Source of the DNA: an uncultured Candidatus Peribacteria bacterium
GTDB lineage: Bacteria > Patescibacteriota > Gracilibacteria > Peribacterales > Peribacteraceae
Assembly (NCBI GenBank): GCA_964478005.1
Contig: CAYZGJ010000001.1
Span: 1 to 44,617, forward strand
Length of the DNA stretch: 44,617 bases
Direction: 5' to 3'
Shown one piece after another: positions 2,004 to 36,424 of this stretch (within the stretch, counting starts at the first letter, position 1; each line of letters begins with the position of its first letter). A model generated the notes under the pieces. The model made no database searches. It worked only from the letters and a program-made list of their open reading frames with translations, and was not told the origin of the DNA. The position numbers and the translations under genes are program-made.

Positions 2004-4433
2004 TCATTGGTCGTTCCGTCGCCCTCCCGGGTACAACCACGCCTTCTCCGCCAGAGCGGTCCTCGCCACCCGGCGGCTGATCCATCGCGAGACGAGGATG
2101 CCCGAGAACATGGAAATGACGACGCCCAGGCCCAGCGTGACCGCGAAGCCCCGCACGATGGAGGTGCCGATCGTGAAGAGGATGACGCAGGTGATCAGCG
2201 TGGAGACATTACTGTCGCGGATACTGGGCCAGGCCTTCTCGAAGCCGATCTCCACGGCGGTCTTCAGCAGCTTGCCGCGCCGCAGCTCCTCCTTCACGCG
2301 CTCAAAGACGAGGACGTTGGTATCCACGGCCATGCCGATGCTGAGGATGATGCCCGCCGCGCCCGCCAGCGTCAGGACGATGTACTGGTCGGTGACCAGG
2401 AAGAGCGGCAATTTGAGCAGGGCGAGGAAGATCGCCGCGTAGGCAAGCAGCGCGAGGTTGGCGATGAGGCCGAGCAGTCGGTACACCGCCAGCATGTAGC
2501 ACATGAGGATGAGCGCGCCGAGCAGTCCCGCCAGAACCGAGGTCTCCAGCGCCTGCGCGCCGAGCGTCGCCTCCACCGTGCGCTGGCCGCTCAAGTAGAT
2601 GGGGGCGGGGATGGCGCCGGTATTGAGGTCCTGCGCCAGTTGCTGCGCTTCCTGGATGGTGCCGGCGCCGGTGATGACGGCCGAGCCGCCGGTGATCTCG
2701 CCCTGGACGGTGGGGGCCGAAACCAGTTCGCCGCCCACGAAGATGGCGATGCGCCTGCCGACGTTGTTGCGCGTCAGCTCCTGGAAGAGCGCGCCGCCCT
2801 CCGGGCTGAAGAGGATCTGCACCACGGGGAGATTCGTGGTGGGGTCCAGCGTGACTGCGGCCGAGCGGAAGTGCGTGCCGGTCAGGGGCGTGTCCTTCCA
2901 GCCGGTGGGCTGCAGTGAGAAGAACAGCATCCGCAGGCCGATCGCCTCTTCCTGCTGCCGTACCCGTCCTTCCTCCAGGCGCGTCTTGAGTTCCTCCGCG
3001 CGGTCGGCCGCATCCGGACCCGTGAGGGTGAGGACGTCGTACGACGCGCGGTCACTGGCGCTCCGGGGAGCCTCGTTGACCCGGATGAGGTGGTAGCCGA
3101 ACGGCGTTTCGACCGGCTCGCTGATGATGCCCGGTTGCTGCGCGAAAGCGACGTCTTCGAACGCAGGGACCAGCTCGCCGCGGCCGATGCGTCCCAGGCT
3201 GCCCGCACTCTCCGCGGAGGGGCCGTCGGACTCCGTCCGTGCCAGATCCTCGAAGGATGCGCCATTCTCGAGTTGCTGCTTGAGTTCCTGTGCGCGCTGC
3301 AGGGCTTCCTCTTTCGTGCGGCGGACGGAGGCCTCTGCGGCATTGGCGCCGGAGTAGGCGACGAGGATGTGACTGACGTCCACTTCTTCCCGGCCGGCGG
3401 CGAAAGAGCGCAGGAAGAGGAGCCCGGCCGTGCCGTCCTCCATCTCCGCCACTCGCAGCGTGCCCGGTTGCATGCCGCGCAGCGCCCCGATGAGACGGCT
3501 GGAAGACAGCTCATCGAGCGCCTGATCCTCCTGGACGGATGCGGTGGCGCCCGTCTCGGTGCGCGCCAGGAGTTCGAAGGCGGCCGCGGCTTCCGCCACC
3601 GTGCGGCCGGTCATCGCGCGCGGCGAAACGACTTCCGCCAGGAAGATGCCGGGAATCTGCTGCTGGATGGGCTGCTGGTTCTCATCCGGGACCTGCACGG
3701 TCAGCGTGCCTTCGCGGCGCAGCACCCCCTGATCGGGCCGTGCATTCCACAGATCATCCAGTCCCTCCGGCAACGTATCCCGGAAGAAGAGGCGGTTGTC
3801 TTCGTAGGCGACGCCCAGCGTGCTGCCCACGTCCTGCCCCACCACCGCCAGGCTGACGCCGCTCTGGGTGATGCGGCGCTGCGCATCGTCCGCGCGGGCG
3901 CGCACGGAGGCTTCGTACTCTTCCGTGGCTTCGGTGAATTCTTCCTTGAATTCCAGCTGGATGGTCTTGCCGACGGTCTCGATGCACACCTGCACGTCCA
4001 CGACCCCGGGGCACTCCACCAGCAGGTGTTTCTCGCCGCCCACGTACGAAGGCGTGATGACGGCCTCGCTCACGCCCAGCGCATTCACCCGGCGCTCCAG
4101 CACCGTGCGGATGGCTTCCACCAGGTTCTGCCGCTGCTGCTCCACGACCTGCCGCTCCAGGCGCAGTTCGCTGATGCGTTCGCCGGATCCGTCCGCGGCT
4201 TCCAGCTGCGCAATCTCTTCATCGATGCGCCGCAGCTGCTCCCGGATCTCCTGCTCGGAGATGCGGAAATCCAGCTGCGTGCCGCCGGCCAGGTCCAGCC
4301 CCAGGTGCAGGCCGGGATTGAGCCAGGCGGGCGCCCATCCCTGCTTCCACTGGTCGGGCAGGGCGATGACGAGGATGACGGCCGCGACGAGCGCTGCGAG
4401 GAGCGGCTTGAGAGAGGCGGTACGGGAGGTCAT
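2004..4433 (-). CDS. secD: protein translocase subunit SecD with embedded parvulin-type PPIase domain
   Basis: N-terminal TM plus GLDLAGGTQL. C-terminal SecD core with five further TM helices (VYRLLGLIANLAL, SIGMAVDTNVLVFERVKEE, IRDSNVSTLIT). Aa about 354-453 (nt 3075-3374) read SHILVAY...GSLGRIGRGELVPAFEDVAF...PVETPFGYHLIRV, a PpiC/parvulin signature. Confidence 0.85.
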   Translation of the reverse strand: MTSRTASLKPLLAALVAAVILVIALPDQWKQGWAPAWLNPGLHLGLDLAGGTQLDFRISEQEIREQLRRIDEEIAQLEAADGSGERISELRLERQVVEQQRQNLVEAIRTVLERRVNALGVSEAVITPSYVGGEKHLLVECPGVVDVQVCIETVGKTIQLEFKEEFTEATEEYEASVRARADDAQRRITQSGVSLAVVGQDVGSTLGVAYEDNRLFFRDTLPEGLDDLWNARPDQGVLRREGTLTVQVPDENQQPIQQQIPGIFLAEVVSPRAMTGRTVAEAAAAFELLARTETGATASVQEDQALDELSSSRLIGALRGMQPGTLRVAEMEDGTAGLLFLRSFAAGREEVDVSHILVAYSGANAAEASVRRTKEEALQRAQELKQQLENGASFEDLARTESDGPSAESAGSLGRIGRGELVPAFEDVAFAQQPGIISEPVETPFGYHLIRVNEAPRSASDRASYDVLTLTGPDAADRAEELKTRLEEGRVRQQEEAIGLRMLFFSLQPTGWKDTPLTGTHFRSAAVTLDPTTNLPVVQILFSPEGGALFQELTRNNVGRRIAIFVGGELVSAPTVQGEITGGSAVITGAGTIQEAQQLAQDLNTGAIPAPIYLSGQRTVEATLGAQALETSVLAGLLGALILMCYMLAVYRLLGLIANLALLAYAAIFLALLKLPLFLVTDQYIVLTLAGAAGIILSIGMAVDTNVLVFERVKEELRRGKLLKTAVEIGFEKAWPSIRDSNVSTLITCVILFTIGTSIVRGFAVTLGLGVVISMFSGILVSRWISRRVARTALAEKAWLYPGGRRNDQ

Positions 4434-5110
4434 GGGAGAAGGGGAAGAGAGGAGCGCGGCGTGAAGGTGACGTGCGTGCCGACAATGACGTCATCGGCAA
4501 AGATCTCGGCGAAGGCGGGCGTCGGAATGCCGCGGATGATGATGTCTTCCCCGCTCCCGCCGCCGCTCTGCAGGATGCTGACCAGCACGCCCCGGACGAC
4601 GATGCCGATGGGCGTCTCGCCGGCGGATGCCAGGAGCGCGGCGTAGGCGGTGCGCCCTTCCTCCGTCAGCGTGATCCGGACGATGCCCTCCCCGCCCTCC
4701 GCCGCCGCCTCCACCCAGGCGAGGTGCTCCTCCGTGATGCCGGTGGCGCGGAAGCCGCCGAAGGATTCCACGGTGATATCCGCCGCCTCCCCCTCCTCCG
4801 CGGCGATCATGATCGCGAAGTCCAGCGGTCGCGCAAGCTGCTCGCTGAGCAGCTCGATGGTGGCGGGATCGTCCACGGTGACGTCCATCAGGAGCGACCC
4901 GTCCTCCTCCTGCCGGATGGCCTGCTCGATCAGCCGTACCTGCATGCTCTGGATGCGGCGTTCCACCACGCGCATGGCCGCCTGGGACAGCGCTTCGCGT
5001 CGGGCCGGGTCCTGCGTCTCCATCACGAGTGCGTACGATTCCGTCACCGCTCCGCCCGTACAGGCGGCGAGGAAGAGAAGGACGCTGAAGAGGGCTCCGA
5101 GGCGTTTCAT
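4430..5110 (-). CDS. lipoprotein resembling the SecD periplasmic P1 domain
   Basis: Start MKRLGALFSVLLFLAAC has a lipobox. RVVERRIQSM and IGIVVRGVLVSILQSGGGSGEDIIIRG parallel SecD VLERRVNALG and IAIFVGGELVSAPTVQGEITGGSAVITG. Stop overlaps the secD start as ATGA. Confidence 0.65.
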   Translation of the reverse strand: MKRLGALFSVLLFLAACTGGAVTESYALVMETQDPARREALSQAAMRVVERRIQSMQVRLIEQAIRQEEDGSLLMDVTVDDPATIELLSEQLARPLDFAIMIAAEEGEAADITVESFGGFRATGITEEHLAWVEAAAEGGEGIVRITLTEEGRTAYAALLASAGETPIGIVVRGVLVSILQSGGGSGEDIIIRGIPTPAFAEIFADDVIVGTHVTFTPRSSLPLLP

Positions 5111-5175
5111 GGGTGCAGGGAGTGTAGGGGAGGGTTGCGCGGGGTGCAATTGGATTGACTGATGTCCGATGGCGG

Positions 5176-6132
5176 TCAGCGGCGGATCAGCCGGGCGCCC
5201 GCGCGGATCATCTTGCCCGAGAGATCCACTCCCCGCAGCACGCACCCCTCATCGATCACGCAGTCCTCGATCACGCAGTCCTCGATCACGCAGTCGGCGA
5301 AGGTGACGGTATCCGTCAGACGGCTCTGCCGGACGGCCGTCCGGTCGCCCAGGACCACGCTGCCCGACGTCTCGCTCTCTTCCAGGACGGCGCCTTCCCC
5401 GCGGAGGACGCGGTCGCCCACCAGGCCGCGCGTGGCGTCCAGGTACGCAGAGAAGGACCCGATGTCGTACCACGGCGCGTCCGTCACGAAGCAATCGATG
5501 CCGATATTGCGCCGCAGACACTCTTCGAAGATGCCGCCGATGTTGTCGGGCCTGCGCTGTGCGTAGACGAGCAGCAGCGGCAGCACCTCGCGCGGGAGGA
5601 TCGAGCAGCCCGTGCTCACGATGCTGCTCCCGGGTTCCTGCGGCTTTTCTTCGAATCCGATGACGCCGCGGGTTTCCGCGTCCAGCAGGACCGTGCCGAA
5701 TGCCCGTGCCCGTGCGCGATCGTGGAGATCCACGGCGGCCAGCAGCGGGCGCTTGGGTTGGAATGCCCGCACAAATGCGCGCAGGTCGAATCCGAGGTAG
5801 TTGTCCCCGGCCAGCAGCAGCACGTCGTCGCGGATCTCCTCCCGCATGATCCACTGCGCCAGCGCCCCGAGCGCGCCCAGCTTGTCATCGTCACTCCTGG
5901 TTTCCTCGATGCGCACCGTCAGGGCGGGGTGGTCCATGGCTTCGGCCCACTGCATCATGTCCTCCCGGAACGCCGCGTTGGTGCTGACCGTCACAGGCAG
6001 GTCACGGGGCAGCCCGCGGACGATGTGCGTGAGGAGGGGGACGCCCGCCAGCGGCAGCAGCGGCTTGGCCCTCTTTTCCGTGAGGGGCCAGAGCCTGGTC
6101 GCATAGCCGCCGGCGAGGATGAAGACGCGCAT
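5176..6132 (-). CDS. sugar-1-phosphate nucleotidylyltransferase family protein with C-terminal left-handed beta-helix
   Basis: MRVFILAGGYATRLWPLTEKRAKPLLPLAG is the NTP-transferase G-loop. C-terminus has repetitive DCVIE units. Start at ATG 6132. Confidence 0.8.
   Translation of the reverse strand: MRVFILAGGYATRLWPLTEKRAKPLLPLAGVPLLTHIVRGLPRDLPVTVSTNAAFREDMMQWAEAMDHPALTVRIEETRSDDDKLGALGALAQWIMREEIRDDVLLLAGDNYLGFDLRAFVRAFQPKRPLLAAVDLHDRARARAFGTVLLDAETRGVIGFEEKPQEPGSSIVSTGCSILPREVLPLLLVYAQRRPDNIGGIFEECLRRNIGIDCFVTDAPWYDIGSFSAYLDATRGLVGDRVLRGEGAVLEESETSGSVVLGDRTAVRQSRLTDTVTFADCVIEDCVIEDCVIDEGCVLRGVDLSGKMIRAGARLIRR
5252..5296. repeat. 15-bp in-frame tandem repeat x3 (TCGATCACGCAGTCC)
   Basis: Two perfect copies plus one with a single mismatch. 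Encodes DCVIEDCVIEDCVID in the beta-helix tail of the nucleotidyltransferase. Confidence 0.9.
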
Positions 6133-6152
6133 GGGGAAGGGTTTCGAATGTA

Positions 6153-6180
6153 AAATGTTAAATGCAAAATGCAAAATGAT
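6153..6180. repeat. heptamer microsatellite (AAATGYW)x4
   Basis: aaatgtt aaatgca aaatgca aaatgat, 21 nt upstream of the nucleotidyltransferase start (minus strand). Same unit as 44024-44058. GCAAAATGATC here is inverted against GATCATTTTGC at 6247-6257. Confidence 0.85.
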
Positions 6181-6261
6181 CACCGGAGAGAGCTTCATCG
6201 TACATCGTCATTTCACATTTTGCATGGAGTCCGCCGCAGCGGACGATCATTTTGCATTGCT

Positions 6262-7062
6262 TCAAAAGAACCACTTCCACTTCCCCTCCTTGGGCCGCAC
6301 GACCGTCACCGGCTGTCCCTCCAGCGTCTCCACGCGTTCGTCACGTTCCACCATGCCCAGGACGGAGGGGAGCAGGAGGTAAGTGATGCCCCGGTTGCGG
6401 CAGGCGGAGAGCAGGTTGAGCGACTGCTCCAGATCGCTGCACTGGAGGAGGTGCGTGATGCGCTGCCCCGTCAGCACGTCTTCCAGCTTATTGAGTTTGC
6501 CCCGCACGGGGACGCCTGCGATCTCCGGCTCGGGAGTGCCGCGTCCGTCGAGCACGGCGACGGGCGTCAGGGGGTTGCGGCTGCGCTGCAGCGACTCGAT
6601 GAGGGCACGGGACTCGCGCGTGGCGCCGATGATCAGCGTGGGGAAGGCCGGAGGCGCGCGGCGCAGGAGCCGGCGCTGCAGACGGCCGAAGACGATGTGC
6701 CAGCCCCACGGAAGGACGACGGTGAGGGCCAGCGCCGTCAGCAGCAGCAGCCGACTGAAGAAGAGCCCGTAGACGAAGTAGTACCCCAGGGCGAAGAGCG
6801 CCGTCGCGACGACCGCCGCGTAGGCGATGTACATGCCCGTCCGCAGGCTTTCCTGATTCCTCAGCAGCGCGAACGTCCGCGTGGCGATCAGCGTGGCGAG
6901 CCACAGCGGCGCGGTGAGCAGCGCGATCAGCAGGAACCGGTCGAAGGGGAATGCGGTGGAGAGGACCCAGCCCACCCGCAGGAAGTACGCCAGTGCGTAG
7001 CATCCCACGAAGAGGGCCAGATCGGTCAGGAGCCAGAGGATCAGGAGGAGGGGGCGGCGCAT
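6262..7062 (-). CDS. N-terminal (TM plus Rossmann-like) portion of a polyprenyl glycosylphosphotransferase; catalytic domain absent
   Basis: Four to five TM helices, then TLIIGATRESRALIESL...VAVLDG...KLEDVL...ITHLLL as in WbaP/EPS-type sugar transferases. The ORF stops (KEGKWKWFF*) where the Bac_transf domain normally begins. Confidence 0.6.
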   Translation of the reverse strand: MRRPLLLILWLLTDLALFVGCYALAYFLRVGWVLSTAFPFDRFLLIALLTAPLWLATLIATRTFALLRNQESLRTGMYIAYAAVVATALFALGYYFVYGLFFSRLLLLTALALTVVLPWGWHIVFGRLQRRLLRRAPPAFPTLIIGATRESRALIESLQRSRNPLTPVAVLDGRGTPEPEIAGVPVRGKLNKLEDVLTGQRITHLLQCSDLEQSLNLLSACRNRGITYLLLPSVLGMVERDERVETLEGQPVTVVRPKEGKWKWFF

Positions 7063-7081
7063 GGCAACAGCATAATGCAAC

Positions 7082-7109
7082 AATGGATAATGGATAATGG
7101 ATAATGAAG
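7082..7109. repeat. heptamer microsatellite (AATGGAT)x3 plus a degenerate fourth copy (aatgaag)
   Basis: aatggat aatggat aatggat aatgaag, starting 20 nt upstream of ATG 7062 (minus strand). Same unit as 43937-43964. Confidence 0.9.
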
Positions 7110-7252
7110 GGAAGCGAAGGAAGGCGAAGAAGCTAAGGAAGCTACAGAGTGCTCTGCAGCGGGATCCATCGCAGCACAACACAAGATCAATGGAGATAGT
7201 GGATCTCCTGAGTTCTCAGCATCCATACAATCCTCAATACTCCTTAGCTTCT

Positions 7253-8137
7253 TTAGCTTCCTTCGAAATAGTCCTTAGCTTCTTTCAGGGCAATCGCCAG
7301 CTTCGTGATATCCCACGGAATCACCCGTCCCGGCACGTACAGGCTCTGCGCGATGGCGTCCGCCGGGAGCGACAGGTGCGTCTCCATCCACGCCAGCTTC
7401 GCGGCGAGAGCGGCATTCTCCGCCGCCCGCTGCGCCAGCATTTCCCGGTGCAGGACGTAGGCGGCGAAGGTTTCGGCAAAGTCCTCGAAGGCATCCGCTT
7501 TGGCGTAGCCCGAGATGAAGTCCTCCGTCCGGGCCTCTCTGCGCAGGACCCGTTCCGTCTCCCAGGAGATGGCGAAGAATGCGGCTGCGGGACTGTCGGC
7601 GTAGAACCGGTCGTGCCCGTCCCGGAAGACGCTGTCGCCGGCGGAGGGGGTGCCCGGCAGGTTTCCGTGCGTCACGTGGGCGCACTCGTGGACGAGCAGG
7701 CTGACGAATTCTTCCTCCGGCACCGTGCCGTCGAGGATGATGGTCGTCTTGCCTCCCAGCCCGCGGCGCGAGGCGTCGCCGTAGCGAACGTAGAAGGTGC
7801 GCAGGTGCGTGCGGCAGGCGGGGGGCAGCGCGAGGAGCGTCCGCAGCGTGAGGGCGCGGTGGCGGGAGGTCATCTCGCTGCGGTCGAGCACGGGCAGCAC
7901 GGAGGCGGGGAGCGTCTCGGCCGCCAGCACCTGAAAGGGGACTCCGATGCGTCGCGCGCGGCGTTCCTCCTGGCCAGCGAGCAGTCTGGTTGCGGGTGCG
8001 GTGGCTGCTTCCTGCAGGGAAACCGTGACCGTTTCGCTTGCCGACGGTGCAAACCATGGTACACTTGCGCCCAGAATCAGCAGTGCGGTGACGGCACTGG
8101 CGGCCGGAACGACGAGGAGATGCAGACGTCTGTTCAT
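7253..8137 (-). CDS. secreted putative zinc metallopeptidase (HExxH)
   Basis: Signal-like N-terminus MNRRLHLLVVPAASAVTALLILGA. Motif LLVHECAHVTHG. C-terminal DAFEDFAETFAAYV. Confidence 0.6.
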   Translation of the reverse strand: MNRRLHLLVVPAASAVTALLILGASVPWFAPSASETVTVSLQEAATAPATRLLAGQEERRARRIGVPFQVLAAETLPASVLPVLDRSEMTSRHRALTLRTLLALPPACRTHLRTFYVRYGDASRRGLGGKTTIILDGTVPEEEFVSLLVHECAHVTHGNLPGTPSAGDSVFRDGHDRFYADSPAAAFFAISWETERVLRREARTEDFISGYAKADAFEDFAETFAAYVLHREMLAQRAAENAALAAKLAWMETHLSLPADAIAQSLYVPGRVIPWDITKLAIALKEAKDYFEGS

Positions 8138-8183
8138 GGGCGGAAGAGCAGAAAGTAGCAATTTTTAACATCTTTCGATTCGC

Positions 8184-9638
8184 ATGTCAACATCCGTCGC
8201 GAGCGCGGTCCACAACGGGCAGCAGCTCGCCCTCACCATCGAGAAACTGACCCATGGCGGGGCCGGACTGGCTTTCGTAGACGGCCTGCCTGTCTTCGTT
8301 CCCGGAGCCACCCCCGGCCAGCAGGTCGAGGTCGTGATCACCAAGCAGCGCGGCAGCTACGCCGAAGCGAAACTGCAGCGCGTGGTGCGCCGGGCGATCG
8401 ACGATGTCCCGCCCCGCTGCCAGCACGTGCACGACTGCGGCGGCTGCAGCTGGCAGCACCTGCCGTACGACAAGCAGCTCACGCACAAAGAGGACATCGT
8501 CCGCGAGACCCTGGGGCATCTCACGCCCGTGGACGAGGATCTGCGCCGCCAGCTGCCGGGCCGCGTGCTCAAGATCATCCCCAGCCCCCAGGTCTTCCAC
8601 TACCGCAATAAATTGGAGCTCTCCTTCGGGTACGCCACCATGCGGACGGAGGAGCGCGCCGGCAAGCGCATCTATCTGGATCAGGATCCGTCCATCGGCT
8701 TCCATCGCCCCAGCGACTGGGCCACGGTGCTGCCGATCAGCGAGTGTCATCTGTACGACGAGCAGAGCGCTTCGCTGATTGCCGATGTGAAGCGCTTCCT
8801 GCAGGAGACGCGCCTGCCCGTCTACAATCCCAAGACGCACAAGGGGTTCCTGCGCACGCTGCTGCTGCGCCGCGGCGTGCACACGGGGGAACACATGCTC
8901 TGCTTTCTCGTCAATGCGCGGAAGAAGGAACTCGAGCCGCTCTTCCAGCACTTCATGCGCTTCGCCGGGCGGCCGGGACTCAAGAGCCTGCTCGTCGTCG
9001 AGCACACGGGCATGAGCGACAAGCCCGAGCAGCCGCAGGTCCATGCGCTCCTGGGCAAGCAGACCATCACCGAGCGCCTCTTCGACCTCACGTTCGAGAT
9101 CTCGCCGTTCTCCTTCTTCCAGACCAACACCCTGGGCGCCGAAAAGCTCTACCAGGCCATCGCGCGCGGCGCGGACCTGCAGCGCACCGACACCGTCCTG
9201 GACGCCTACTGCGGGATGGGGACCATCGGGCAGTACCTGGCGCGCTCGTGCGAGAAGGTGGTGGGCATCGAGAGCCACCCCGCCGCCATCCAGGACGCCC
9301 TGACCTCCAGCGGCCGCAACCGCATCGCCAACATCAGCTTCTACAAGGGCCGCGCCGAGCAGGTCCTGCGCGACCAGCTGCAGCCGGGCGGCAAGTACCA
9401 CTTCGACGTCATTGTGGTCGATCCGCCCCGCGCGGGCCTCCACCCCAAGGCGCTCGATGCCCTGATCGCCCACGCCCCGCGCACGCTGGTCTACGTTTCG
9501 TGCAACACGGCGACCCTCGCGCGCGACATGGGCGGCCTCCTGAAAGCCGGCTACGAACTGCGCACCGTCCAGCCCGTCGACATGTTCCCCCACACGCCGC
9601 ACATCGAGACGGTCAGCGTGCTGGAGAGGAAGGGGTAG
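8184..9638 (+). CDS. rlmD: 23S rRNA (uracil-C5)-methyltransferase RlmD/RumA family (TRAM plus Fe-S plus SAM MTase)
   Basis: TRAM-like N-terminus (LTHGGAGLAFVDGLPVFVPGATPGQ). Cys cluster CQHVHDCGGCSWQH. MTase motifs LDAYCGMGTIG, VIVVDPPRAGL, YVSCNTATLARD. Confidence 0.9.
   Translation: MSTSVASAVHNGQQLALTIEKLTHGGAGLAFVDGLPVFVPGATPGQQVEVVITKQRGSYAEAKLQRVVRRAIDDVPPRCQHVHDCGGCSWQHLPYDKQLTHKEDIVRETLGHLTPVDEDLRRQLPGRVLKIIPSPQVFHYRNKLELSFGYATMRTEERAGKRIYLDQDPSIGFHRPSDWATVLPISECHLYDEQSASLIADVKRFLQETRLPVYNPKTHKGFLRTLLLRRGVHTGEHMLCFLVNARKKELEPLFQHFMRFAGRPGLKSLLVVEHTGMSDKPEQPQVHALLGKQTITERLFDLTFEISPFSFFQTNTLGAEKLYQAIARGADLQRTDTVLDAYCGMGTIGQYLARSCEKVVGIESHPAAIQDALTSSGRNRIANISFYKGRAEQVLRDQLQPGGKYHFDVIVVDPPRAGLHPKALDALIAHAPRTLVYVSCNTATLARDMGGLLKAGYELRTVQPVDMFPHTPHIETVSVLERKG
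9575..9627. repeat. direct repeat copy A: last 53 bp region of rlmD
   Basis: CGTCGACATGTTCCCCCACACGCCGCACATCGAGACGGTCAGCGTGCTGGAGA recurs at 10385-10437 with one mismatch. Confidence 0.95.
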
Positions 9639-9643
9639 GCAGA

Positions 9644-10267
9644 TTATTGTGCGCGATAATCTTTCGGATCAATGCATGCATCGAACGTCGTACGGTCTAT
9701 CCGAATCCACTCGGTACCATTGATGCCGCGTGCATGTTTGACGGTTGGACTATAGGGAAATGCGGATGCAATTTTGATCCATCTGTGTTGCTCGCGTGCG
9801 ATGATGCGTATCTCATCCGCCACCTCCGATAAGTCCTGGTCCTGACTGAGGACGAGCGCGACATCGAATTGTCTTTTGTGTGCAAGGTTGATGACATCCA
9901 CAGCGATGCGGACGTCGATGCCCTTTTCCTCGCCGACCAAAAAACTGTGGGTGGTTCCATCGGGGAGAGTGACAATTTTGTTGCGATAGCGCAACGGGCG
10001 CGAATACACTCGTACGCCCGACCGCATCATTGCCAGTTTCTTTGCCGCCCAGAACTGATGCCATGTTTCATTGTCTGCGCTATCCGGTACTCCCGTATAG
10101 AAGCGTACTTCCGCACATTCCCAGTGATGTTGCGTACAGAGCGTTTGAGCCAATCGCAGCGGATCACTATTGGGGTAGGTATAACCAAAGGCTTTCAGTG
10201 CAGCATGAAACAAATTCTGACCATCGATGAAGACCATTGCCCGTTTGGTGGGTGGCTCAGGAGGCAC
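9644..10267 (-). CDS. NYN (LabA/PIN-like) domain protein
   Basis: KRAMVFIDGQNLFHAALKAFG...EEKGIDVRIAVDVINLA...DVALVLSQDQDLSEVADE. AT-richer than the flanks. GTG start 10267 chosen because TATTTT lies 6 nt upstream; alternatives are ATG 10237 and ATG 10393. Confidence 0.75.
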   Translation of the reverse strand: MPPEPPTKRAMVFIDGQNLFHAALKAFGYTYPNSDPLRLAQTLCTQHHWECAEVRFYTGVPDSADNETWHQFWAAKKLAMMRSGVRVYSRPLRYRNKIVTLPDGTTHSFLVGEEKGIDVRIAVDVINLAHKRQFDVALVLSQDQDLSEVADEIRIIAREQHRWIKIASAFPYSPTVKHARGINGTEWIRIDRTTFDACIDPKDYRAQ

Positions 10268-10384
10268 GCGCAAAAAATAACCCCGCCCGGGCTTTGCAGC
10301 AAGTCGGTCGGGGAGGAAGTACGTACAGTATAAGGCATTGTTGATATAAATCAATCCATTCACTCCTTTTTCCCAGTAGCAAAT

Positions 10385-10437
10385 CGTCGACATGTTCCCC
10401 CACACCCCGCACATCGAGACGGTCAGCGTGCTGGAGA
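10385..10437. repeat. direct repeat copy B: vestigial rlmD 3' end
   Basis: 52/53 identical to 9575-9627. Would encode VDMFPHTPHIETVSVLEMK* against VDMFPHTPHIETVSVLERKG* in the intact gene. Confidence 0.95.
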
Positions 10438-10452
10438 TGAAGTGACGGAGGG

Positions 10453-10488
10453 GAGAAAAGGCAGGAAGGGCAGAAAAGGCAGGAAGGT
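10453..10488. repeat. 18-bp tandem repeat x2 (AGAAAAGGCAGGAAGG core)
   Basis: gagaaaaggcaggaaggg / cagaaaaggcaggaaggt immediately after repeat copy B. Confidence 0.8.
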
Positions 10489-10504: not shown

Positions 10505-10663
10505 TTACACCTTCTGCATCTCCTCGCGTTTGCGGGTTGCCTCTTTTTCCAGCTGCTCGGCTTCCCGCTGCAGACGCTCCGCTTTGCGTGCGGCTTCCTT
10601 GCGCGCAGCAGCTTCTCTTTCCAATTGTTTCGCCTGTTCTTTCAGCATGTCTGCATCGGCCAT
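10505..10663 (-). CDS. small charged coiled-coil protein (52 aa), hypothetical
   Basis: MADADMLKEQAKQLEREAAARKEAARKAERLQREAEQLEKEATRKREEMQKV. This is the only part of the long antisense ORF 10505-11239 that does not overlap rlmH. Confidence 0.35.
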   Translation of the reverse strand: MADADMLKEQAKQLEREAAARKEAARKAERLQREAEQLEKEATRKREEMQKV

Positions 10664-10741: not shown

Positions 10742-11206
10742 ATGCAGAAGATCACCCTCCTCACGATCGGCGCGCTGAAGGAGTCCTGGGCGAAGGAGGC
10801 GGCGCGTCTGTATCGCGAGCGCATCGTGCATGCCGCGGATCTGCGGGTGCTGGAATTGCAGCCCAGCCGCCAGCCGCATGCGGCGGGGCAGCAGGCGGAG
10901 GAATCGGAGCGATTGCTCCTTTCCGCACGCAAACAGCCGGGACTTCTGATCGTCCTCGACGAACGGGGCGAGGACATTACATCGCAGGAACTTGCAGAGC
11001 TGCTGGGAACAGCCCGGGACCGGGGCGAATCGTTGCAATTCATTCTGGGCGGGTCCTATGGCCTCACCGATACCGTCCGTTCCTCGGCGCACACGGTCCT
11101 GCGCCTCAGCTCCCTGACGCTGCCGCATGAGCTCTGCAGAGTGCTCTTTCTCGAACAGCTCTACCGGGGCTTCGAAATGCTCAAAGGGAGCGGGTATCAC
11201 CATTGA
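10742..11206 (+). CDS. rlmH: 23S rRNA (pseudouridine1915-N3)-methyltransferase RlmH (SPOUT)
   Basis: 154 aa. LDERGEDITSQELAELL, FILGGSYGL, LSSLTLPHELCRVLFLEQLYRGF...GSGYHH are typical of RlmH. TGGTAGAGT lies 6 nt upstream of the ATG. Confidence 0.9.
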   Translation: MQKITLLTIGALKESWAKEAARLYRERIVHAADLRVLELQPSRQPHAAGQQAEESERLLLSARKQPGLLIVLDERGEDITSQELAELLGTARDRGESLQFILGGSYGLTDTVRSSAHTVLRLSSLTLPHELCRVLFLEQLYRGFEMLKGSGYHH

Positions 11207-11230
11207 ATGCCGCATTCGGTATTTTTTGAG

Positions 11231-11259
11231 TTGTCGCATCGCGCTCGCTTTCCTATACT
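11231..11259 (+). promoter_or_regulatory. sigma70-like promoter for tRNA-Glu
   Basis: TTGTCG (11231-11236), 17-nt spacer, TATACT (11254-11259), about 40 nt upstream of the tRNA. Confidence 0.5.
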
Positions 11260-11299
11260 CTGTGCCCGTCGCCTCCGGCGATCGTTCTTTTCTCTCTGT

Positions 11300-11374
11300 G
11301 GCGCCATCGTCTAGCGGTTAGGACGCCAGGTTCTCATCCTGGTAACCGGGGTTCGATTCCCCGTGGCGCTGCCA
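11300..11374 (+). tRNA. tRNA-Glu (anticodon CUC), CCA encoded
   Basis: Manual cloverleaf: acceptor GGCGCCA/TGGCGCT, D arm GTCT-AGCGGTTA-GGAC, anticodon arm CCAGG-TTCTCAT-CCTGG, variable TAAC, T arm CGGGG-TTCGATT-CCCCG, discriminator G, CCA. Confidence 0.92.
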
Positions 11375-11380
11375 TTTCTG

Positions 11381-11429
11381 TCTCTACCGCGCCCACGAAA
11401 TCCTGAAGGGGAGCGGGTATCATCACTGA
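11381..11429 (+). pseudogene. diverged duplicate of the rlmH 3' end
   Basis: ctctaccgcgcccacgaaatcctgaaggggagcgggtatcatcactga aligns with rlmH 11159-11206 (39/48). It would encode LYRAHEILKGSGYHH* against LYRGFEMLKGSGYHH*. Confidence 0.8.
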
Positions 11430-11469: not shown

Positions 11470-11634
11470 ATGCAAAAAATTCACGTCGAGCAGCACTCGT
11501 TCACGGGCGGCATGTGGTTCGCCCTGTGGCTCTTCACCATCGGGTTCCTGCAGCTTGGCTTCTGGAAGGGCGTGCTGGCGCTCCTCCTGTGGCCGTACTT
11601 TTTGGGCGCGGCGCTGAGCGGACTGCTGTCATAG
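11470..11634 (+). CDS. small two-TM membrane protein (54 aa), below the ORF-track cutoff
   Basis: MQKIHVEQHSFTGGMWFALWLFTIGFLQLGFWKGVLALLLWPYFLGAALSGLLS. TACAGT lies 7 nt upstream of the ATG. Its 3' end is duplicated at 13962-13994. Confidence 0.6.
   Translation: MQKIHVEQHSFTGGMWFALWLFTIGFLQLGFWKGVLALLLWPYFLGAALSGLLS
11590..11622. repeat. direct repeat copy A (33 bp, 3' end of small membrane gene)
   Basis: TGGCCGTACTTTTTGGGCGCGGCGCTGAGCGGA is identical to 13962-13994. Confidence 0.95.
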
Positions 11635-11802
11635 GGCGTCGTTTTTCCGTATGCTCTCCAGTATCTCCAGCATCCGCTGCCAGGCTGCGGAGCGAGCGGA
11701 GGCGTTTTCGTGCGAAGCGTCTGGTTCTTCCTCCAGCCGCATGAAAGCGTGGCCGGCTCCCTCGTAGATGACGGGTGCAAACGCGATGTGCGTCAGCGAA
11801 AA
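11629..11802 (-). pseudogene. C-terminal remnant of a dienelactone hydrolase-family gene
   Basis: Minus-strand frame reads FSLTHIAFAPVIYEGAGHAFMRLEEEPDASHENASARSAAWQRMLEILESIRKNDAL*. It is preceded by an in-frame TGA, has no start, and lacks the N-terminal three quarters of the fold. Confidence 0.45.
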
Positions 11803-11825: not shown

Positions 11826-12053
11826 TCACAATCTACAAGGCAAATCCAACCCAAGATTACATCCGATTACAAAAACGAATAAAAGAATCATGCCACCGGA
11901 AAGCATCACAATGGTGACCATAATAGCTGTAAATACAATCATCTCCGGCCACTTTCGTCGCTTCCAATACAGAAACACATTCCTTCCCAATATGAACATG
12001 AGCGTACCCCAGAGCAGTACGATACTACCAAGAATGAGGTTATCTTCATTCAT
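11826..12053 (-). CDS. small membrane protein, hypothetical (75 aa)
   Basis: Two to three hydrophobic helices in an AT-rich patch. No recognisable family. Confidence 0.4.
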   Translation of the reverse strand: MNEDNLILGSIVLLWGTLMFILGRNVFLYWKRRKWPEMIVFTAIMVTIVMLSGGMILLFVFVIGCNLGLDLPCRL

Positions 12054-12128
12054 GTAAGAATGCTATCACACATTGCCATCGGGAGAGTCTCTTGAGATTT
12101 TAATGAACAAGAGGACTACACTGTGCCA

Positions 12129-13952
12129 ATGAAGCTGTCTGCTCTCCGCAGGATGCCGGATTTCCGCCGGGCGCGCGATGCCGTGTCCGTCTCCCGGCGG
12201 TTGCTCGGGATGATCTGGGATATGGACCCGAAACTGTTCATTGGATCATTGATTGTGATCCTCATTCCGGCTGTCATTCCCTTCATCAATGCGTACATCT
12301 ACAAACTTCTCATTGATGCGGTAATCCTGAACATTGCCGGTGCGGCGCTGGAGGTCCGGCACCTCGTCATTCTCCTTATCATCCGCGTTGCCACGTACTT
12401 TTTGCAGGATGCTTCCTTCAGCGCGCAGACCTACATGGAGAGATTGCTATGGACCAAGTTTCCCATCTATTTGCATCAGCGCTTGTACACGGACCTGTCG
12501 CAACTGGATATGGAGACATTGGAGAATCCGCAATTCCGCAATACGCTGGAGCAGGTGAAGGAATCGGTGTACCGTCCTCAGAATCTCATTACCAACTTGC
12601 TCTACGGCTGTCAGAGTCTCGTGCAACTCTTCATCGCATTCGGTGCTCTTCTCGCACTGAACTGGGTGTTCATTCTGTTGGTACTCTTCGTCGCCATCCC
12701 CGAATTCGTCTATCGCCTTTACGAAGACAAAGCCGGATGGACCATCTGGGCTTGGCACAGTCCGCGCAAGAAGCGATTTTCCTATGTGTCGCACTTGTTG
12801 CAGGATGCGCAGAGCGTCAAGGAAATGCGCATTTTTCGGTTGGCACCGCTCTTTGTACGGGAGGCGACGGAGGCACAGGAAGCGTTTTATCGCGAGAACA
12901 AGGCGCTCGCGGGACGGGCACTTCTGTTTCAGATTCTGTTCAATGTTCTCTCCACCCTTCTGATCGTCGGTATCGAAACATATGTCATCCTGCTTGCGTT
13001 TCTGCGTCGGGTGACGATCGGTGACATCAGTTTTTACACGTCCGTGGTGGCCAACTTTCAAAACGGTCTCGGGGGATTGCTGCGCAATATGAACGGCATT
13101 TTTGAATCGAGTTTGTATGTTCGGAGTATCTTCGATGTCATGGATGCCCCGAGGCACATTGTTTCTCCACCCGATGCTCCGGCCAGGACGATGCATCGGC
13201 CGCCGTCCATCGTGTTCGATCACGTGACATTTCGTTATCCGGGTGCGGACCGGGATGTTCTGCATGATTTTTGCGTTGGTATCGCTCCGGGCGAGAAGGT
13301 GGCTTTTGTGGGAGAGAACGGCGCGGGAAAAACGACGATCATCAAGCTGTTGGCGCGCTTCCATGATCCCACGTCCGGACGCATTCTCGTCGATGACAAG
13401 GATTTGCGGGAGCTTCACTTGGAGAGCTGGCATCAGCAGTTGGCCGTTCTGTTTCAGGATTTCAACCGCTACGAAGATACGGCGAAGCATAATATATATT
13501 TTGGGAATGTGCTTAAAGCGATGGATGCACGGGAAATCGAAAGGGCCGCAGAGGATGCAGGAGCCACAGTCGTCATTGATACCTTGAAGAAAGGATATGA
13601 TCAGATGCTCGGACGCGTGTTCGAATCGGGGGAGGAGTTATCGGTGGGTCAGTGGCAAAAGATTGCGCTGGCGCGGGCATATTTTCGGAATGCGCCGGTG
13701 CTGGTGCTGGATGAGCCCACGGCGGCCATCGATGCCAAAGCGGAAGCGGAGATTTTCGCGCGGGTGGAGGAGCTGAGTCAGGATAAGACCGTCCTCCTCA
13801 TTTCCCATCGGTTCTCGACCGTCCGCATGGCCGATCGCATCATCGTGGTGCAGGACGGTGCGGTGCTCGAGCAGGGCAGCCACGATGCATTGATGAAACG
13901 AAAAGGTCTGTATGCGGAACTCTTCACTCTGCAGGCGAAAGGATATCGTTGA
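12129..13952 (+). CDS. ABC exporter, fused permease/ATPase (MsbA/multidrug-like)
   Basis: Six N-terminal TM helices. Walker A GENGAGKTT, signature LSVGQWQK, Walker B VLVLDEPT, H-loop LISHR. TACACT (12117-12122) lies 6 nt upstream of ATG 12129; the ORF track starts at GTG 12123. Confidence 0.9.
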   Translation: MKLSALRRMPDFRRARDAVSVSRRLLGMIWDMDPKLFIGSLIVILIPAVIPFINAYIYKLLIDAVILNIAGAALEVRHLVILLIIRVATYFLQDASFSAQTYMERLLWTKFPIYLHQRLYTDLSQLDMETLENPQFRNTLEQVKESVYRPQNLITNLLYGCQSLVQLFIAFGALLALNWVFILLVLFVAIPEFVYRLYEDKAGWTIWAWHSPRKKRFSYVSHLLQDAQSVKEMRIFRLAPLFVREATEAQEAFYRENKALAGRALLFQILFNVLSTLLIVGIETYVILLAFLRRVTIGDISFYTSVVANFQNGLGGLLRNMNGIFESSLYVRSIFDVMDAPRHIVSPPDAPARTMHRPPSIVFDHVTFRYPGADRDVLHDFCVGIAPGEKVAFVGENGAGKTTIIKLLARFHDPTSGRILVDDKDLRELHLESWHQQLAVLFQDFNRYEDTAKHNIYFGNVLKAMDAREIERAAEDAGATVVIDTLKKGYDQMLGRVFESGEELSVGQWQKIALARAYFRNAPVLVLDEPTAAIDAKAEAEIFARVEELSQDKTVLLISHRFSTVRMADRIIVVQDGAVLEQGSHDALMKRKGLYAELFTLQAKGYR

Positions 13953-13961: not shown

Positions 13962-13994
13962 TGGCCGTACTTTTTGGGCGCGGCGCTGAGCGGA
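13962..13994. repeat. direct repeat copy B (33 bp)
   Basis: Identical to 11590-11622. Would encode WPYFLGAALSGWL*. Confidence 0.95.
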
Positions 13995-14031
13995 TGGCTC
14001 TGATCGCCGCGCCCGTTGGGATGCCATGGGC

Positions 14032-15610: not shown

Positions 15611-16291
15611 TCAGGAGGCCAGCATCCACCGCACCGGATTGTCCGCGATGTAGGCGCGGATGCGATCCCGTTCCGCCTCATTCCGGATGATGCGGTCGTG
15701 GTACCGGGCTTGCCATGCGAAATCGATCCCGTGTTGCCGGGCGTACAGGGTGACGCCGATTTTGAATCCGCGGATGATGGATGCCAGGTTGCGGGATTGG
15801 GGACCGAACCGGTTGCATGTGCGTGTGTGTGGTGGGTGTTGGGACGCGGTGGGTGGGGGTGGTAAATGCGCGGTGGGTGGGGGCGGTAGAGACGCAAAAT
15901 CTTGCGTCTCTACCACGAAACACCCATGCGTTCGTACCATGGATTGCGGCGCATCGATGACCACGATCCCATGCACGTGGTCCGGCATGATGACGAATGC
16001 GTCCAATCGCACGAACGGGAAATGATCCGGAATGGCCATCTAACAGGCGTGCGCGGCCTCCCCCAAGGGCGTCCGGTGCATGCGTGTCGCGTCGCGGGGG
16101 TCATCGGGTCTGGTGTTCCAGGCCGTTTCATCAATGGTGCCGAACGAGGGACGTCGCCCTTTCGTGCAGATCGTCACGTAGTACGCGCCCTTCGATCCGT
16201 AATCCCATCGCGGATTGCGGGCGGAGGGGATGCGGTATGTGCCTCGGAACCATTCATCATTTGATCTATCCACATGTTCCATGTCCCTCAT
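15611..16291 (-). pseudogene. REP-associated tyrosine transposase (RAYT, IS200/IS605-like Y1 HUH) interrupted by in-frame TAG
   Basis: ORFs 16040-16291 and 15611-16039 are in the same frame, separated only by TAG (plus-strand cta at 16040-16042). HUH motif MPDHVHGIV. Tyr motif WQARYHDRIIRNE. The stop aligns with a Trp of the intact paralog at 25679-26269. Confidence 0.75.
15886..15913. repeat. REP-like palindrome GTAGAGACGCAAAATCTTGCGTCTCTAC inside the RAYT pseudogene
   Basis: 12-bp perfect stem with a 4-nt loop. Translated as VVETQDFASL in the RAYT frame. Near-identical copy at 43067-43094. Confidence 0.85.
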
Positions 16292-16324: not shown

Positions 16325-16960
16325 CTACATTGCCTCTTCTCGCTCTCTCTTCAGCACCCGCGTCCACCAGAGGAGCTGATCGAGCATCGTCGCGGCGTCG
16401 CCCATCAGCTTCTCGTTTTCCATCGGCTTCCACTCCGCTTTGCCGAAGAGAACCGGGAAGTGGATATCCGCGGGGATGTGGACGGACGATCGGATGGGCG
16501 CCATCTGGAGTTCCACCGCCACCTGCCGCAGCTGCTCCACCGCCCGCCCGCCGCCCACGGAGCCGTAGCTGACGAAGCCGACGGCCTTGCCGTTCCATGC
16601 GTGGTAGACGTAGTCGAGGGCGTTCTTGAGCACCGCGGGGTAGCCGTGGTTGTACTCGCCCGTCACGATGACGAAACCGTCGTGCTCGGCAATCTGCGCC
16701 GCCCAGCGCTTGGCTGTTTCATTACCATAGTCCTCCGGGGTGATCATCGCCGGGGAAGCGGGCTCGTCGTAGAAGGGCATCGGGTAGTCGCGCAGGTCCA
16801 GCGCCGTCACGTCCACGCCCTCGCGCTGCCGCAGCACGTCCGCAATCCATGCCGCAGGCTTCTCGCTGAAGCGGCCGGGGCGGGTCGTGCCGGTGATGAC
16901 GGCGATGCGCGATGAGTCAGGCACGTCTGTGAAGACCGCGCGCGCCGCATTTCCTATCAA
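16325..16960 (-). CDS. NAD(P)H-dependent FMN reductase family oxidoreductase
   Basis: RIAVITGTTRPGRFSEK, FVIVTGEYNHGYPAVLKNALDY, GFVSYGSVGGGRAVEQLR. TTG start 16960 overlaps the upstream stop (TTGA). Alternative GTG at 16924. Confidence 0.85.
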   Translation of the reverse strand: MIGNAARAVFTDVPDSSRIAVITGTTRPGRFSEKPAAWIADVLRQREGVDVTALDLRDYPMPFYDEPASPAMITPEDYGNETAKRWAAQIAEHDGFVIVTGEYNHGYPAVLKNALDYVYHAWNGKAVGFVSYGSVGGGRAVEQLRQVAVELQMAPIRSSVHIPADIHFPVLFGKAEWKPMENEKLMGDAATMLDQLLWWTRVLKREREEAM

Positions 16961-17496
16961 TCATTCTCCTGAAAAACCGATCCTTCGATGGCCGCCGGCA
17001 GCAGGCCCGCGATGGTCTCGCCCACCCGGTCGGGATGCGGGACGTAGGGGAGGCAGCGCTCCAGCGATTCCTCCCGATTGACCGGCGCCTCGAAGCAGAT
17101 CGATCCGAAGTTGAGCAGATACGTGATCAAGCCGACCCGCCGGACGCTCACGTCGTGGATGCGCCGCAGCGGGATCTCGTGCTCGTGCGCGGCGAGGTAG
17201 AGCCGCAGGTGCAGGTAGATGACCCTCTTGCTGGTGACGATGATGGTGCGCATGCGTTCCGAGAAGAACATGTGGAAGAACTTGTGATAGGCCAGCAGTA
17301 CCAGCGTGGCGCCCAGGAGATAGAGGATGCCGGCGGCGAGTGCCATGAGTTCGATGGAGGCGGCGAGGACGATGAACAGCACGCCGACCAGCAGCAGCAG
17401 CAGGCAGACGCATCCCGATGCCACGTACCGCGCCCAGTGCGCGCGGGTCACGAGCACGACGTGTTCCTGAGCCAGCGGCAGCGGGAGTTCAGCCAT
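16957..17496 (-). CDS. membrane protein with two TM helices and a bacterial PH-like C-terminal domain, hypothetical
   Basis: Start MAELPLPLAQEHVVLVTRAHW, then two TM helices, then TIIVTSKRVIYLHLRL...RRIHDVSVRRVGLITYLLNFGSI, which resembles YdbS/YdbT-type bPH proteins. Confidence 0.55.
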   Translation of the reverse strand: MAELPLPLAQEHVVLVTRAHWARYVASGCVCLLLLLVGVLFIVLAASIELMALAAGILYLLGATLVLLAYHKFFHMFFSERMRTIIVTSKRVIYLHLRLYLAAHEHEIPLRRIHDVSVRRVGLITYLLNFGSICFEAPVNREESLERCLPYVPHPDRVGETIAGLLPAAIEGSVFQEND

Positions 17497-17740
17497 TGTC
17501 TGCAGGGAGAAGATCCAGGAGATGCGGGAGCGCCACGAGTGCCAGGACCAGCCCCAGGGCGCCTGCCAGATAGACGATGCGCAGGATCCCGTCACGCAGC
17601 CGGAGAGACTGCGGGGCCTTGATGGATCGCAGGAAATCGCGCCGCATGCGCTCTACCCGCCGCGCTTCGAGAGCGATCGCCCCGGCGAAGAGGAGAGACA
17701 GGAGCGCGAGTGCCGAGAGGATGGCAAGGAAGAGGGACAT
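17489..17740 (-). CDS. small two-TM membrane protein, hypothetical
   Basis: MSLFLAILSALALLSLLFAGAIAL...IVYLAGALGLVLALVAL. Overlaps the downstream gene by 8 nt. Confidence 0.45.
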   Translation of the reverse strand: MSLFLAILSALALLSLLFAGAIALEARRVERMRRDFLRSIKAPQSLRLRDGILRIVYLAGALGLVLALVALPHLLDLLPADNG

Positions 17741-17890
17741 TGTTTTTTCATAAGCCAAAACATCAACTATGTACTGTACAGTAAACACTGGAATGAGTCA
17801 ACGAAACGCCGGATTTCTCCGGCGTGGCACCGCGGGAACTCCGCCGGGTGCGCGAGCCGCCCGGCGGAGCCTGTGCCTTACGGAACGCGA

Positions 17891-18109
17891 TCACACCACC
17901 CCCTTCTTCGTCAGTTTGCTGCTGATGACCAGCACGTACACCGCCGAGAGTCCCACGATGGTGTAGACGACCCGGGAGACGACCGTAGCCGGACCGCCGA
18001 AGAGCGCGGCGACCAGATCGAACTGAAAGAGGCCGACTAGGCCCCAGTTGATGCCGCCGATGACCAAGAGCAGCAAGGCGACCCAATCGAGAACGCTGAG
18101 GTTCTTCAT
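17891..18109 (-). CDS. DUF378 family membrane protein
   Basis: MKNLSVLDWVALLLLVIGGINWGLVGLFQFDLVAALFGG is the characteristic DUF378 motif. Confidence 0.8.
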   Translation of the reverse strand: MKNLSVLDWVALLLLVIGGINWGLVGLFQFDLVAALFGGPATVVSRVVYTIVGLSAVYVLVISSKLTKKGVV

Positions 18110-18273
18110 AAGAGAGAGGAGGGAGGGGATAAGCAACCGTACACTCTACACGATTCTTGGCCAAAGTAACGTTTGCAGGGTTCTCGCCTCTTCGAAATGA
18201 GTGGCGGAATCGTCCTTTTTGCATTCTCTTCATTCCTGTTCCCCGGCTGGAAATGCAGGTATACTCAAGAGAC

Positions 18274-36416: not shown

Positions 36417-36424
36417 ATCACATC

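Follow-up and report, generated by a model that had tools for sequence, protein, structure and literature searches.

We analysed a 44,617-nt stretch of DNA (hereafter the window) from an uncultured Candidatus Peribacteria bacterium, contig CAYZGJ010000001.1 of assembly GCA_964478005.1, with a GC content of 62%. Here, the 3′ end of an intact rlmD-type gene is repeated on the far side of a low-GC insert that carries a gene for a predicted NYN nuclease, and the same arrangement recurs at two genes downstream, rlmH and mem54 (Table 1). A sequence-only reading of this DNA had proposed that a small cassette integrated at the rlmD terminus, an interpretation that our analysis partly supports. As that reading noted, a 53-mer at 9575–9627 was found again at 10385–10437 (52/53 identical) and nowhere else in the window; it had no match in 100 dinucleotide-preserving shuffles. 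The repeat extends to 58 nt (9575–9632 and 10385–10442; 56/58 identical), and its two copies, A1 and B1, enclose a 752-bp segment (previously put at about 760 bp; cassette 1) with a GC content of 0.50–0.54, against 0.63–0.70 in rlmD. The NYN open reading frame (ORF) is the sole plausible gene in the segment, and its GC content at third codon positions (GC3) is 0.57, compared with 0.92 in rlmD and 0.85–0.92 in the core genes of the contig.

The two copies end differently. A1 closes the working gene as ..VLERKG-stop, and B1, read in frame, gives the dead end ..VLEMK-stop followed by an 18-bp tandem repeat, as previously described. A1 leaves the homology directly after an AAG codon and continues as GGG TAG and then insert sequence, making the last two rlmD codons insert-derived. 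Related loci in other genomes, referred to by L numbers, were used for comparison; one of them, L096, was found in a metagenome scan with a degenerate rlmD-end pattern, and two others from that scan, L095 and L097, were dropped as unrelated (a low-GC organism; only 37% identity). The rlmD gene of L096 ends GAG AGG AAG TGA and B1 reads GAG ATG AAG TGA, with its stop in the same position as in L096 and L098. Because B1 keeps the ancestral AAG-TGA and A1 departs after AAG, we take B1 to be the old rlmD end and A1 the incoming one.

Comparison with the nearest relatives by RlmD protein, Candidatus Peribacteria metagenome-assembled genomes (MAGs), confirmed that the NYN gene was inserted at the rlmD terminus. 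rlmD and rlmH are separated by 110–150 nt in L003 and L004 and by 3 nt in L099 and L100, and overlap by 1 nt in L105, with no NYN gene in any of these gaps. In the closest relative, L098 (rlmH 87% identical at the amino-acid level), rlmD ends ..ERK-TGA and rlmH starts 23 nt on. Because relatives keep the two genes nearly adjacent, close pairing of rlmD and rlmH is the ancestral state, into which the NYN gene was inserted. The approximately 280 bp between B1 and rlmH, which contain a 52-amino-acid coiled-coil ORF (cc52) with no family match in profile searches, are another insertion, separate from cassette 1 and with no flanking repeat. Exact-protein look-ups of rlmD, NYN (198 amino acids; 256-amino-acid call P0001) and cc52 returned a single, identical 937-nt Logan contig and no empty site from the same species.

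The sequence-only reading had also pointed to two further cassettes of the same architecture and suggested a search for other duplicated gene ends. Comparing every ORF end in the window with its downstream 9 kb revealed exactly three gene-end relics: the one at rlmD and the two that had been anticipated. The rlmH end (A2, 11159–11206) recurs as B2 (11382–11429; 39/48 identical) around a gene for tRNA-Glu(CTC), and the mem54 end (A3, 11590–11632) recurs as B3 (13962–14004; the first 33 nt exact) around a 2.3-kb segment. mem54 encodes 54 amino acids and has 305 homologues. A3 ends ..SGLLS-stop and B3 ..SGWL-stop, and both types of C terminus (..SGLL. and ..SGW..) occur among natural mem54 homologues. 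The mem54 family spans many phyla at 65–88% identity, unusually high conservation for such a small protein, with the C-terminal 3–5 residues free to vary. Cassette 3 opens with the 3′ fragment of a dienelactone hydrolase gene, and this tail-to-tail joint with mem54 is a natural gene junction of a related high-GC genome, preceding low-GC exporter genes. As the fragment is a high-GC piece of a neighbouring gene, cassette 3 came by way of a related genome rather than directly from a low-GC donor. The three repeats are thus real, but the earlier picture of discrete cassettes was too tidy, as no repeat flanks the cc52 insertion and cassette 3 includes part of a neighbouring gene.

Table 1. Features of the rlmD–rlmH–mem54 locus (positions in the window; L numbers, loci in other genomes)
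Feature	Position	Strand	Basis or remark
rlmD-type gene (TRAM + U5 methyltransferase), intact	8184..9638	+	Pfam tRNA_U5-meth_tr and TRAM; amino-acid identity 85% to L096, 79% to L099
Copy A1, working rlmD 3′ end	9575..9632	+	Repeat comparison
Cassette 1, low-GC insert	9633..10384		Absent from L098, L099, L105, L003 and L004
Predicted NYN/LabA PIN-fold nuclease gene	9644..10240	-	Convergent with rlmD; stop-to-stop distance 5 nt
Promoter-like site for the NYN gene, within cassette 1	10327..10354	-	TTGATT-16-TATACT; consensus match only
Copy B1, dead former end of rlmD, displaced; keeps ancestral AAG-TGA	10385..10445	+	Matches the L096 rlmD end at 58/61 positions, stop included
18-bp tandem repeat, 2.2 copies	10449..10487		Downstream of B1
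cc52, 52-amino-acid coiled-coil ORF	10505..10663	-	Gene call in Logan contig; missing in L098, L099 and L105
rlmH, SPOUT methyltransferase gene	10742..11206	+	Pfam; ends as copy A2 (11159-11206), LYRGFEMLKGSGYHH then stop; C terminus as in closest relative L098
Cassette 2: terminator-like hairpin, promoter-like site, tRNA-Glu(CTC) gene	11207..11381	+	tRNA-Glu(CTC) at 11300-11374
Copy B2, dead rlmH 3′ end of another allele type	11382..11429	+	LYRAHEILKGSGYHH then stop
mem54, small membrane protein gene	11470..11634	+	End is copy A3 (11590-11632); syntenic with L101
Dienelactone hydrolase gene, 3′ fragment, 57 codons, high GC	11629..11802	-	Pfam DLH positions 178-215 of 217; tail-to-tail overlap with mem54 end
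75-amino-acid membrane ORF	11826..12053	-	GC3 0.47
Fused permease/ATPase ABC exporter gene, MsbA-like	12123..13952	+	Stop 9 nt ahead of B3
Copy B3, dead mem54 3′ end	13962..14003	+	..LSGWL then stop

Serial relics and allelic copies in a sister genome

The same pattern was present in a second genome, in two assemblies: L101, a Joint Genome Institute (JGI) assembly of the L096 lineage, and L102, the same locus in the NCBI MAG GCA_029558515.1. In L101, rlmH (8106–8585) is followed by a low-GC cassette with an NYN gene on the plus strand (NYN-2; 28% identical to the NYN protein of the window), a dead rlmH end of 104 nt (relic c2, 9426–9529; 89% identical), a minus-strand gene for 86 amino acids, a second dead rlmH end of 49 nt (relic c3, 9910–9958), 42 nt of spacer, the mem54 homologue, and MIP and AI-2E genes. 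The order from rlmH through both relics to mem54 was the same in L102. These two additional displaced ends bring the total to five relics in two genomes.

Comparison of the copies indicated that they are alleles. Silent changes are expected to make up 22% of random single changes, but 8 of the 9 codons that differ between the L101 copies c1 and c2 were silent, including a TGA-to-TAA stop (P = 4e-5), as were 5 of the 8 that differ between A2 and B2 (P = 0.009); pooled, the count was 13/17 (P ~1e-6). An in-frame stop is kept in four of the five relics. Because the differences are mostly silent and the stops are kept, the copies are alleles of different working genes rather than duplicates made in situ, and the incoming DNA therefore carried its own gene end.

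The sister genome also changed how we read the repeat at rlmH. B2 matches A2 at 39/48 positions, the working rlmH end of L101 at 44/48 and relic c3 at 43/48. B2 and c3 are positionally equivalent, approximately 40 nt 5′ of mem54, and are identical at 40 of 41 core positions, in two genomes whose rlmH genes are 69% identical, mem54 genes 83% and spacers 48%. Our first reading, in which A2 was native and B2 foreign, was dropped once c3 emerged as the counterpart of B2; for the same reason, a single event need not have produced both A2 and B2. Possible explanations for the conservation of B2 and c3 include a function at the DNA level, recent exchange, or a slowly evolving end that was displaced twice. 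Moreover, the rlmH gene of the window groups with L098, but the downstream backbone from mem54 to AI-2E is shared with L101. In all five cases the repeats end 0–12 nt from the stop codon.

Cargo and the variable zone

The cargo of cassette 1 is a predicted NYN/LabA PIN-like nuclease, as the sequence-only reading had proposed. The protein matched the Pfam NYN profile (PF01936) at 43.9 bits (cut-off 24.2). Its sequence had no match in the PDB, but an AlphaFold model (pLDDT 90, pTM 0.86) matched PDB folds, led by the LabA-like structure 2qip (E 3e-6) and including T5 flap endonuclease. Among 31 homologues, the acidic residues D6, D109, D115, D134 and D136 were invariant or nearly so. The family is very common and strongly conserved: it had 6165 matches, and the top 120, at 64–78% identity, came from across phyla. 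In other phyla, homologues adjoin a tyrosine integrase gene (L089–L094) or rve and serine recombinase genes (L088), which fits a travelling gene; no flanking repeats were found around the homologues in L082, L088 and L089. The idea that the cargo serves defence or addiction gained a lead from the PADLOC profile HEC-09, which the window protein matched at E 1.4e-12 over positions 5–150 of 203 and NYN-2 at E 2.2e-42. The candidate defence gene HEC-09 gave no protection when tested in its source paper. Together with restriction–modification (R-M) and CBASS genes in the surrounding zone, the match makes a defence role plausible.

The cassettes lie in a hotspot flanked by core genes. Upstream, the order SecDF, nucleotidyl transferase, peptidase and rlmD is common to all relatives; 3′ of rlmH, 4–5 kb differ in every genome before homologues of window genes 16325–19512 return. 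Each relative has its own version of the rlmD/rlmH junction and of the stretch between rlmH and the p211 homologue, with no mobility genes in either. In L096 and L101, the cargo between rlmD and rlmH includes an R-M system with Vsr, a major facilitator superfamily (MFS) transporter and DUF2975 genes, and in L002 the zone holds one ORF of unknown function. Scans for gene-end relics in L002, L003, L004, L099, L100, L105 and L082–84 found none.

Several other features of the zone were observed. The L101 cargo forms a 5.2-kb low-GC island (2890–8100, corresponding to 5130–10350 in L096) between rlmD and rlmH, with no duplicated rlmD end, that comprises two DUF2975 genes with a helix-turn-helix (HTH) gene, the MFS gene, a minus-strand tRNA-Glu(CTC) gene, and Vsr, HNH endonuclease and Dcm methylase genes. 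Directly 3′ of rlmH in L105 (7600–12100) is a CBASS operon (SMODS cyclase, E2-like protein and SAVED effector) with HTH and ImmA/M78 regulators. A tRNA-Glu(CTC) gene lies within a few kilobases of rlmH in all relatives (17786–17860 in L002, 8751–8825 in L004 and approximately 5666–5740 in L101, as in cassette 2 of the window); its position and strand vary by genome, so it is shuffled along with the variable zone. A degenerate gene for a REP-associated tyrosine transposase (RAYT; 15611–16039, minus strand) lies in the zone 1.6 kb from cassette 3; its match to NCBIfam NF047646 (E 1.3e-12) fell short of the cut-off, but it keeps the HUH motif (MPDHVHGIV) and YHDRIIR, with a Pro/Thr-rich insert in the middle of the protein. 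The cassette borders contain no hairpin or REP-like repeats that could tie this gene to the insertions.

Elsewhere in the window, two heptamer tandem repeats each occur at two distant loci (AAATGCA at 6160–6172 and 44024–44052; AATGGAT at 7082–7100 and 43937–43960), flanking or preceding minus-strand sugar-transferase-type genes at 6262–7182 and 43113–44000. A 20-nt perfect palindrome, AGACGCCCCATGGGGCGTCT, is present at 497–516 and 26022–26041, and a 39-nt tandem repeat of about four copies (22807–22955) lies just 3′ of an aminotransferase gene. A second block of low GC3 (32376–37624) consists of minus-strand ORFs of 1346 and 297 amino acids with no Pfam match, and no gene-end relic flanks it.

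Models for displacement of gene 3′ ends

Two kinds of integration had been suggested, Campbell-type and site-specific. An event of the first kind that brings in a copy of the gene end agrees with the silent-site pattern between the copies, and nothing pointed to a site-specific recombinase working in trans or since lost. We consider it likely that the cassettes arose by Campbell-type insertion of DNA bearing its own gene end, whichever enzyme was responsible. That the crossover was a single one with a small circle, made by general recombination of the host (3′ end displacement), is our working proposal, which we hold tentatively and at slightly less than even confidence. We infer the circular intermediate, the enzyme and the direction of transfer as follows. 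A small circle would have borne the final ~60 nt of rlmD, in a working version that came from a related lineage, together with a self-contained NYN gene with its own promoter. A single recombination between this circle and the resident rlmD end would make the incoming copy the new terminus of the gene (..ERKG-stop) and leave the resident end (..E[R>M]K-stop, with its ancestral TGA) as a dead relic, shifted downstream by 810 bp. This process may also have operated at rlmH and at the small membrane gene in the window, and twice in series at rlmH in the sister genome; serial events of this type would yield short arrays of cassettes with displaced gene ends between them. The crossover would use identity blocks of 20–50 nt and host recombination rather than a cassette-specific integrase, as in the model for rhs C-terminal tips. 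This proposal predicts an empty site in which GAGAGGAAG runs directly into TGACGGAGG, and a circle junction in which GTAGCAAAT is joined to CGTCGAC, continuing through the 58 nt to AAG and then GGGTAGGCAG. We propose that two demands keep the repeats short: they need sufficient length to recombine, but must be short or diverged enough that the cassette does not loop out again.

Several observations are in line with this proposal. An insert bracketed by a duplication is what a single crossover with a circular molecule leaves behind, and the repeats contain perfect identity blocks of 31, 33 and 50 nt. The cassettes lack an integrase, as had been claimed: Pfam and NCBIfam searches of all plausible ORFs detected no integrase, recombinase or transposase in the cassettes or the window, except for the degenerate RAYT, and precomputed Pfam annotations showed no integrase in 18 kb of L101. 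The further suggestion that a recombinase had acted in trans or been lost found no support. The five junction pairs share no common motif, and relics at a single target, rlmH, begin 104 nt (c2) or 48–49 nt (B2 and c3) before the stop, albeit in three cases only. Single-stranded folds of the repeats were no better than those of shuffles (z -1.3 to +2.3), which does not fit integron attC sites, and no integron integrase was found. The cassette ends carry no terminal inverted repeats, no partial tRNA-Glu repeats that could be classical att sites were present in the window or L101, and IMG/VR scans with rlmD-end and rlmH-end patterns matched no viral contig.

Other observations count against recombination of small circles by host enzymes. 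The homology is short: perfect blocks span 21–50 nt, and just 14 nt between A2 and B2, at or under the limit for efficient RecA-type recombination. Along their full length, B1 and B2 look resident and A1 and A2 look like the other allele; the crossover would then lie at the very 5′ end of the repeat, as in integrase systems, or outside it. The pattern is present in two genomes only, the empty sites are in other lineages only, and several insertions in the zone have no relic (cc52, the 5.2-kb island of L096, the L105 CBASS operon and the L002 ORF). Finally, the formation and intercellular transfer of circles of 0.2–2.4 kb lack an explanation, and the 223-bp circle that cassette 2 would require is physically awkward.

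Some of these points would be explained if the cassettes were remnants or satellites of site-specific integrative elements whose attP mimics a gene 3′ end, with a tyrosine or serine recombinase encoded elsewhere or deleted, as in elements of the CIME type or those with cargo only. The layout of attL, cargo and attR with a replacement end is that seen at the 3′ ends of tRNA, tmRNA, trmE and fda genes, repeats of 43–104 nt are typical of such sites, and tycheposons are known to integrate in series, with older units pushed inward. That B1 and B2 are resident-like throughout fits a crossover where the identity block starts on its 5′ side, and the recombinase genes beside NYN homologues in other phyla are also consistent with this explanation. 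Nevertheless, we regard it as unlikely. Three target sequences inside 4.5 kb would demand three specificities, and one gene, rlmH, has two repeat lengths. Cassette size goes down to 175 bp and matches the genes exactly, with no trace of a decayed integrase; neither 44.6 kb here nor 18 kb of L101 encodes an integrase, and these gene ends are on no viral contig.

A second alternative dispenses with the circle. Linear DNA from a related strain, taken up by transformation, could have recombined homologously on its left side (rlmD, rlmH and sequence upstream) and been joined illegitimately on its right within the resident copy, in a manner resembling homology-facilitated illegitimate recombination (HFIR); the right side would be sealed illegitimately because the plasticity zone has no homology there, and the relic would be the unreplaced resident end. 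Such events account for working copies that are all of one allele type and relics that are all of another, and for repeats that stop at the stop codon, where homology between donor and recipient ends. They also account for the grouping of rlmH with L098 (87%) on a mem54–AI-2E backbone shared with L101, for the natural mem54/hydrolase junction that opens cassette 3, and for the 4–5 kb after rlmH without synteny among relatives. In all five cases, however, the illegitimate joint would have to lie within the terminal 43–104 nt of the anchor gene. Furthermore, documented HFIR deletes recipient DNA: in an E. coli test system, one-sided events produced deletions, and duplications of 109–950 bp came from single crossovers with circles (PMC3240628). 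We therefore judge the linear route to be quite improbable.

The two remaining explanations fare far worse. As the window is a metagenome-assembled contig, and Logan contigs of SRR31189356 and SRR5007133 break within the repeats, we considered an assembly chimera of strain variants joined at a shared k-mer. Contig breaks at exact 31-mers are, however, expected from true repeats; the two copies differ in sequence, every cassette has both of its junctions assembled, and three cases occur consecutively in the window. The same layout was also assembled independently (JGI and NCBI MAG) at another gene of a different genome, and five relics in two genomes make an artefact very unlikely. The last explanation is a target-site duplication, formed in situ when a transposase or a casposase/Cas1-like integrase makes a staggered cut. 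It would explain direct repeats that abut the insert and would be tenable for the rlmD repeat alone (56/58), but we rejected it as scarcely credible given that the copies differ chiefly at silent sites with TGA versus TAA stops, as different working alleles would, that repeat length varies between 43 and 104 nt, that terminal inverted repeats and a transposase are both absent, and that A1 and A3 part from B1 and B3 ahead of the stop codon.

Significance and comparison with known systems

Patescibacteria, the candidate phyla radiation (CPR), have small genomes with few recognizable mobile elements, yet their accessory and defence genes vary. If displacement by host recombination is correct, a recombinase-free route would explain part of this gene flux, and all that a gene would need for homing is a short stretch copied from the end of a conserved gene. 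It is conceivable, although doubtful, that these streamlined bacteria, poor in mobile elements, use conserved gene 3′ ends more broadly as portable attachment sites; integrase-free circles, each with a replacement end and one expression-ready gene and possibly able to loop out again, would then represent a generalized form of rhs tip displacement that feeds defence genes, tRNAs and transporters into a hotspot. The recombinase-free route would also leave a searchable signature, a live gene end followed a few hundred bases on by a dead copy in frame, that could help to map recent gene gain in MAGs. Such relics break short-read assemblies and may pass for chimeras.

The displacement of rhs, CdiA and MafB C termini with orphan tips is similar in several respects (Jackson et al. 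2009, PMC2935791). In the rhs model, a live gene is followed by serial dissociated ends, each led by a core fragment of variable length, and recombination with small circles is the proposed origin. We found the same combination of an intact gene with dead 3′ ends that open with conserved upstream sequence of variable length: three single relics in the window and two serial ones, of 104 and 49 nt, in L101. The incoming DNA differs in GC content in both settings. Unlike rhs, the targets here are housekeeping genes (rlmD and rlmH) and a tiny membrane protein gene rather than polymorphic toxins, and the homologous stretch, at 43–104 nt, is far shorter. The new tip amounts to 0–4 codons, with no alternative toxin domains or immunity genes, and what is gained is an unrelated downstream gene: a nuclease, a tRNA or an exporter.

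Integrase-borne islands (SGI1 at trmE, ICESt1/3 at fda with CIMEs, Dehalococcoides ssrA islands and tycheposons) share with the cassettes the repeats of a target 3′ end, the replacement end, the distal displaced end, tandem accretion and cargo that is often defence-related. They differ in that the cassettes have no integrase in or near them, measure 0.2–2.4 kb instead of 5–100 kb, occupy three adjacent targets and show varying repeat length at one target. The H47 island of E. coli is likewise small, without its own recombinase, and bounded by extensive imperfect direct repeats; it recombines at several identity segments inside those repeats, and its RecA-independent mobility was shown experimentally (PMC3191183). 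H47 is 13 kb long, however, its repeats are not gene ends, and its mobility is experimental, whereas the cassettes are known from sequence. Neisseria minimal mobile elements and Pseudomonas core defence hotspots (PMC3787668, PMC10250203) resemble the zone described here in their conserved flanks, varied content (R-M, CBASS, NYN and transporter genes) and absence of mobility genes, but the exchange proposed for them, a double crossover within the flanking genes, does not duplicate a gene end. The cassettes at rlmD, rlmH and mem54 thus extend two known kinds of arrangement, gene-end-targeting islands and rhs tip displacement, to CPR bacteria, to housekeeping genes and to a defence-rich plasticity zone.

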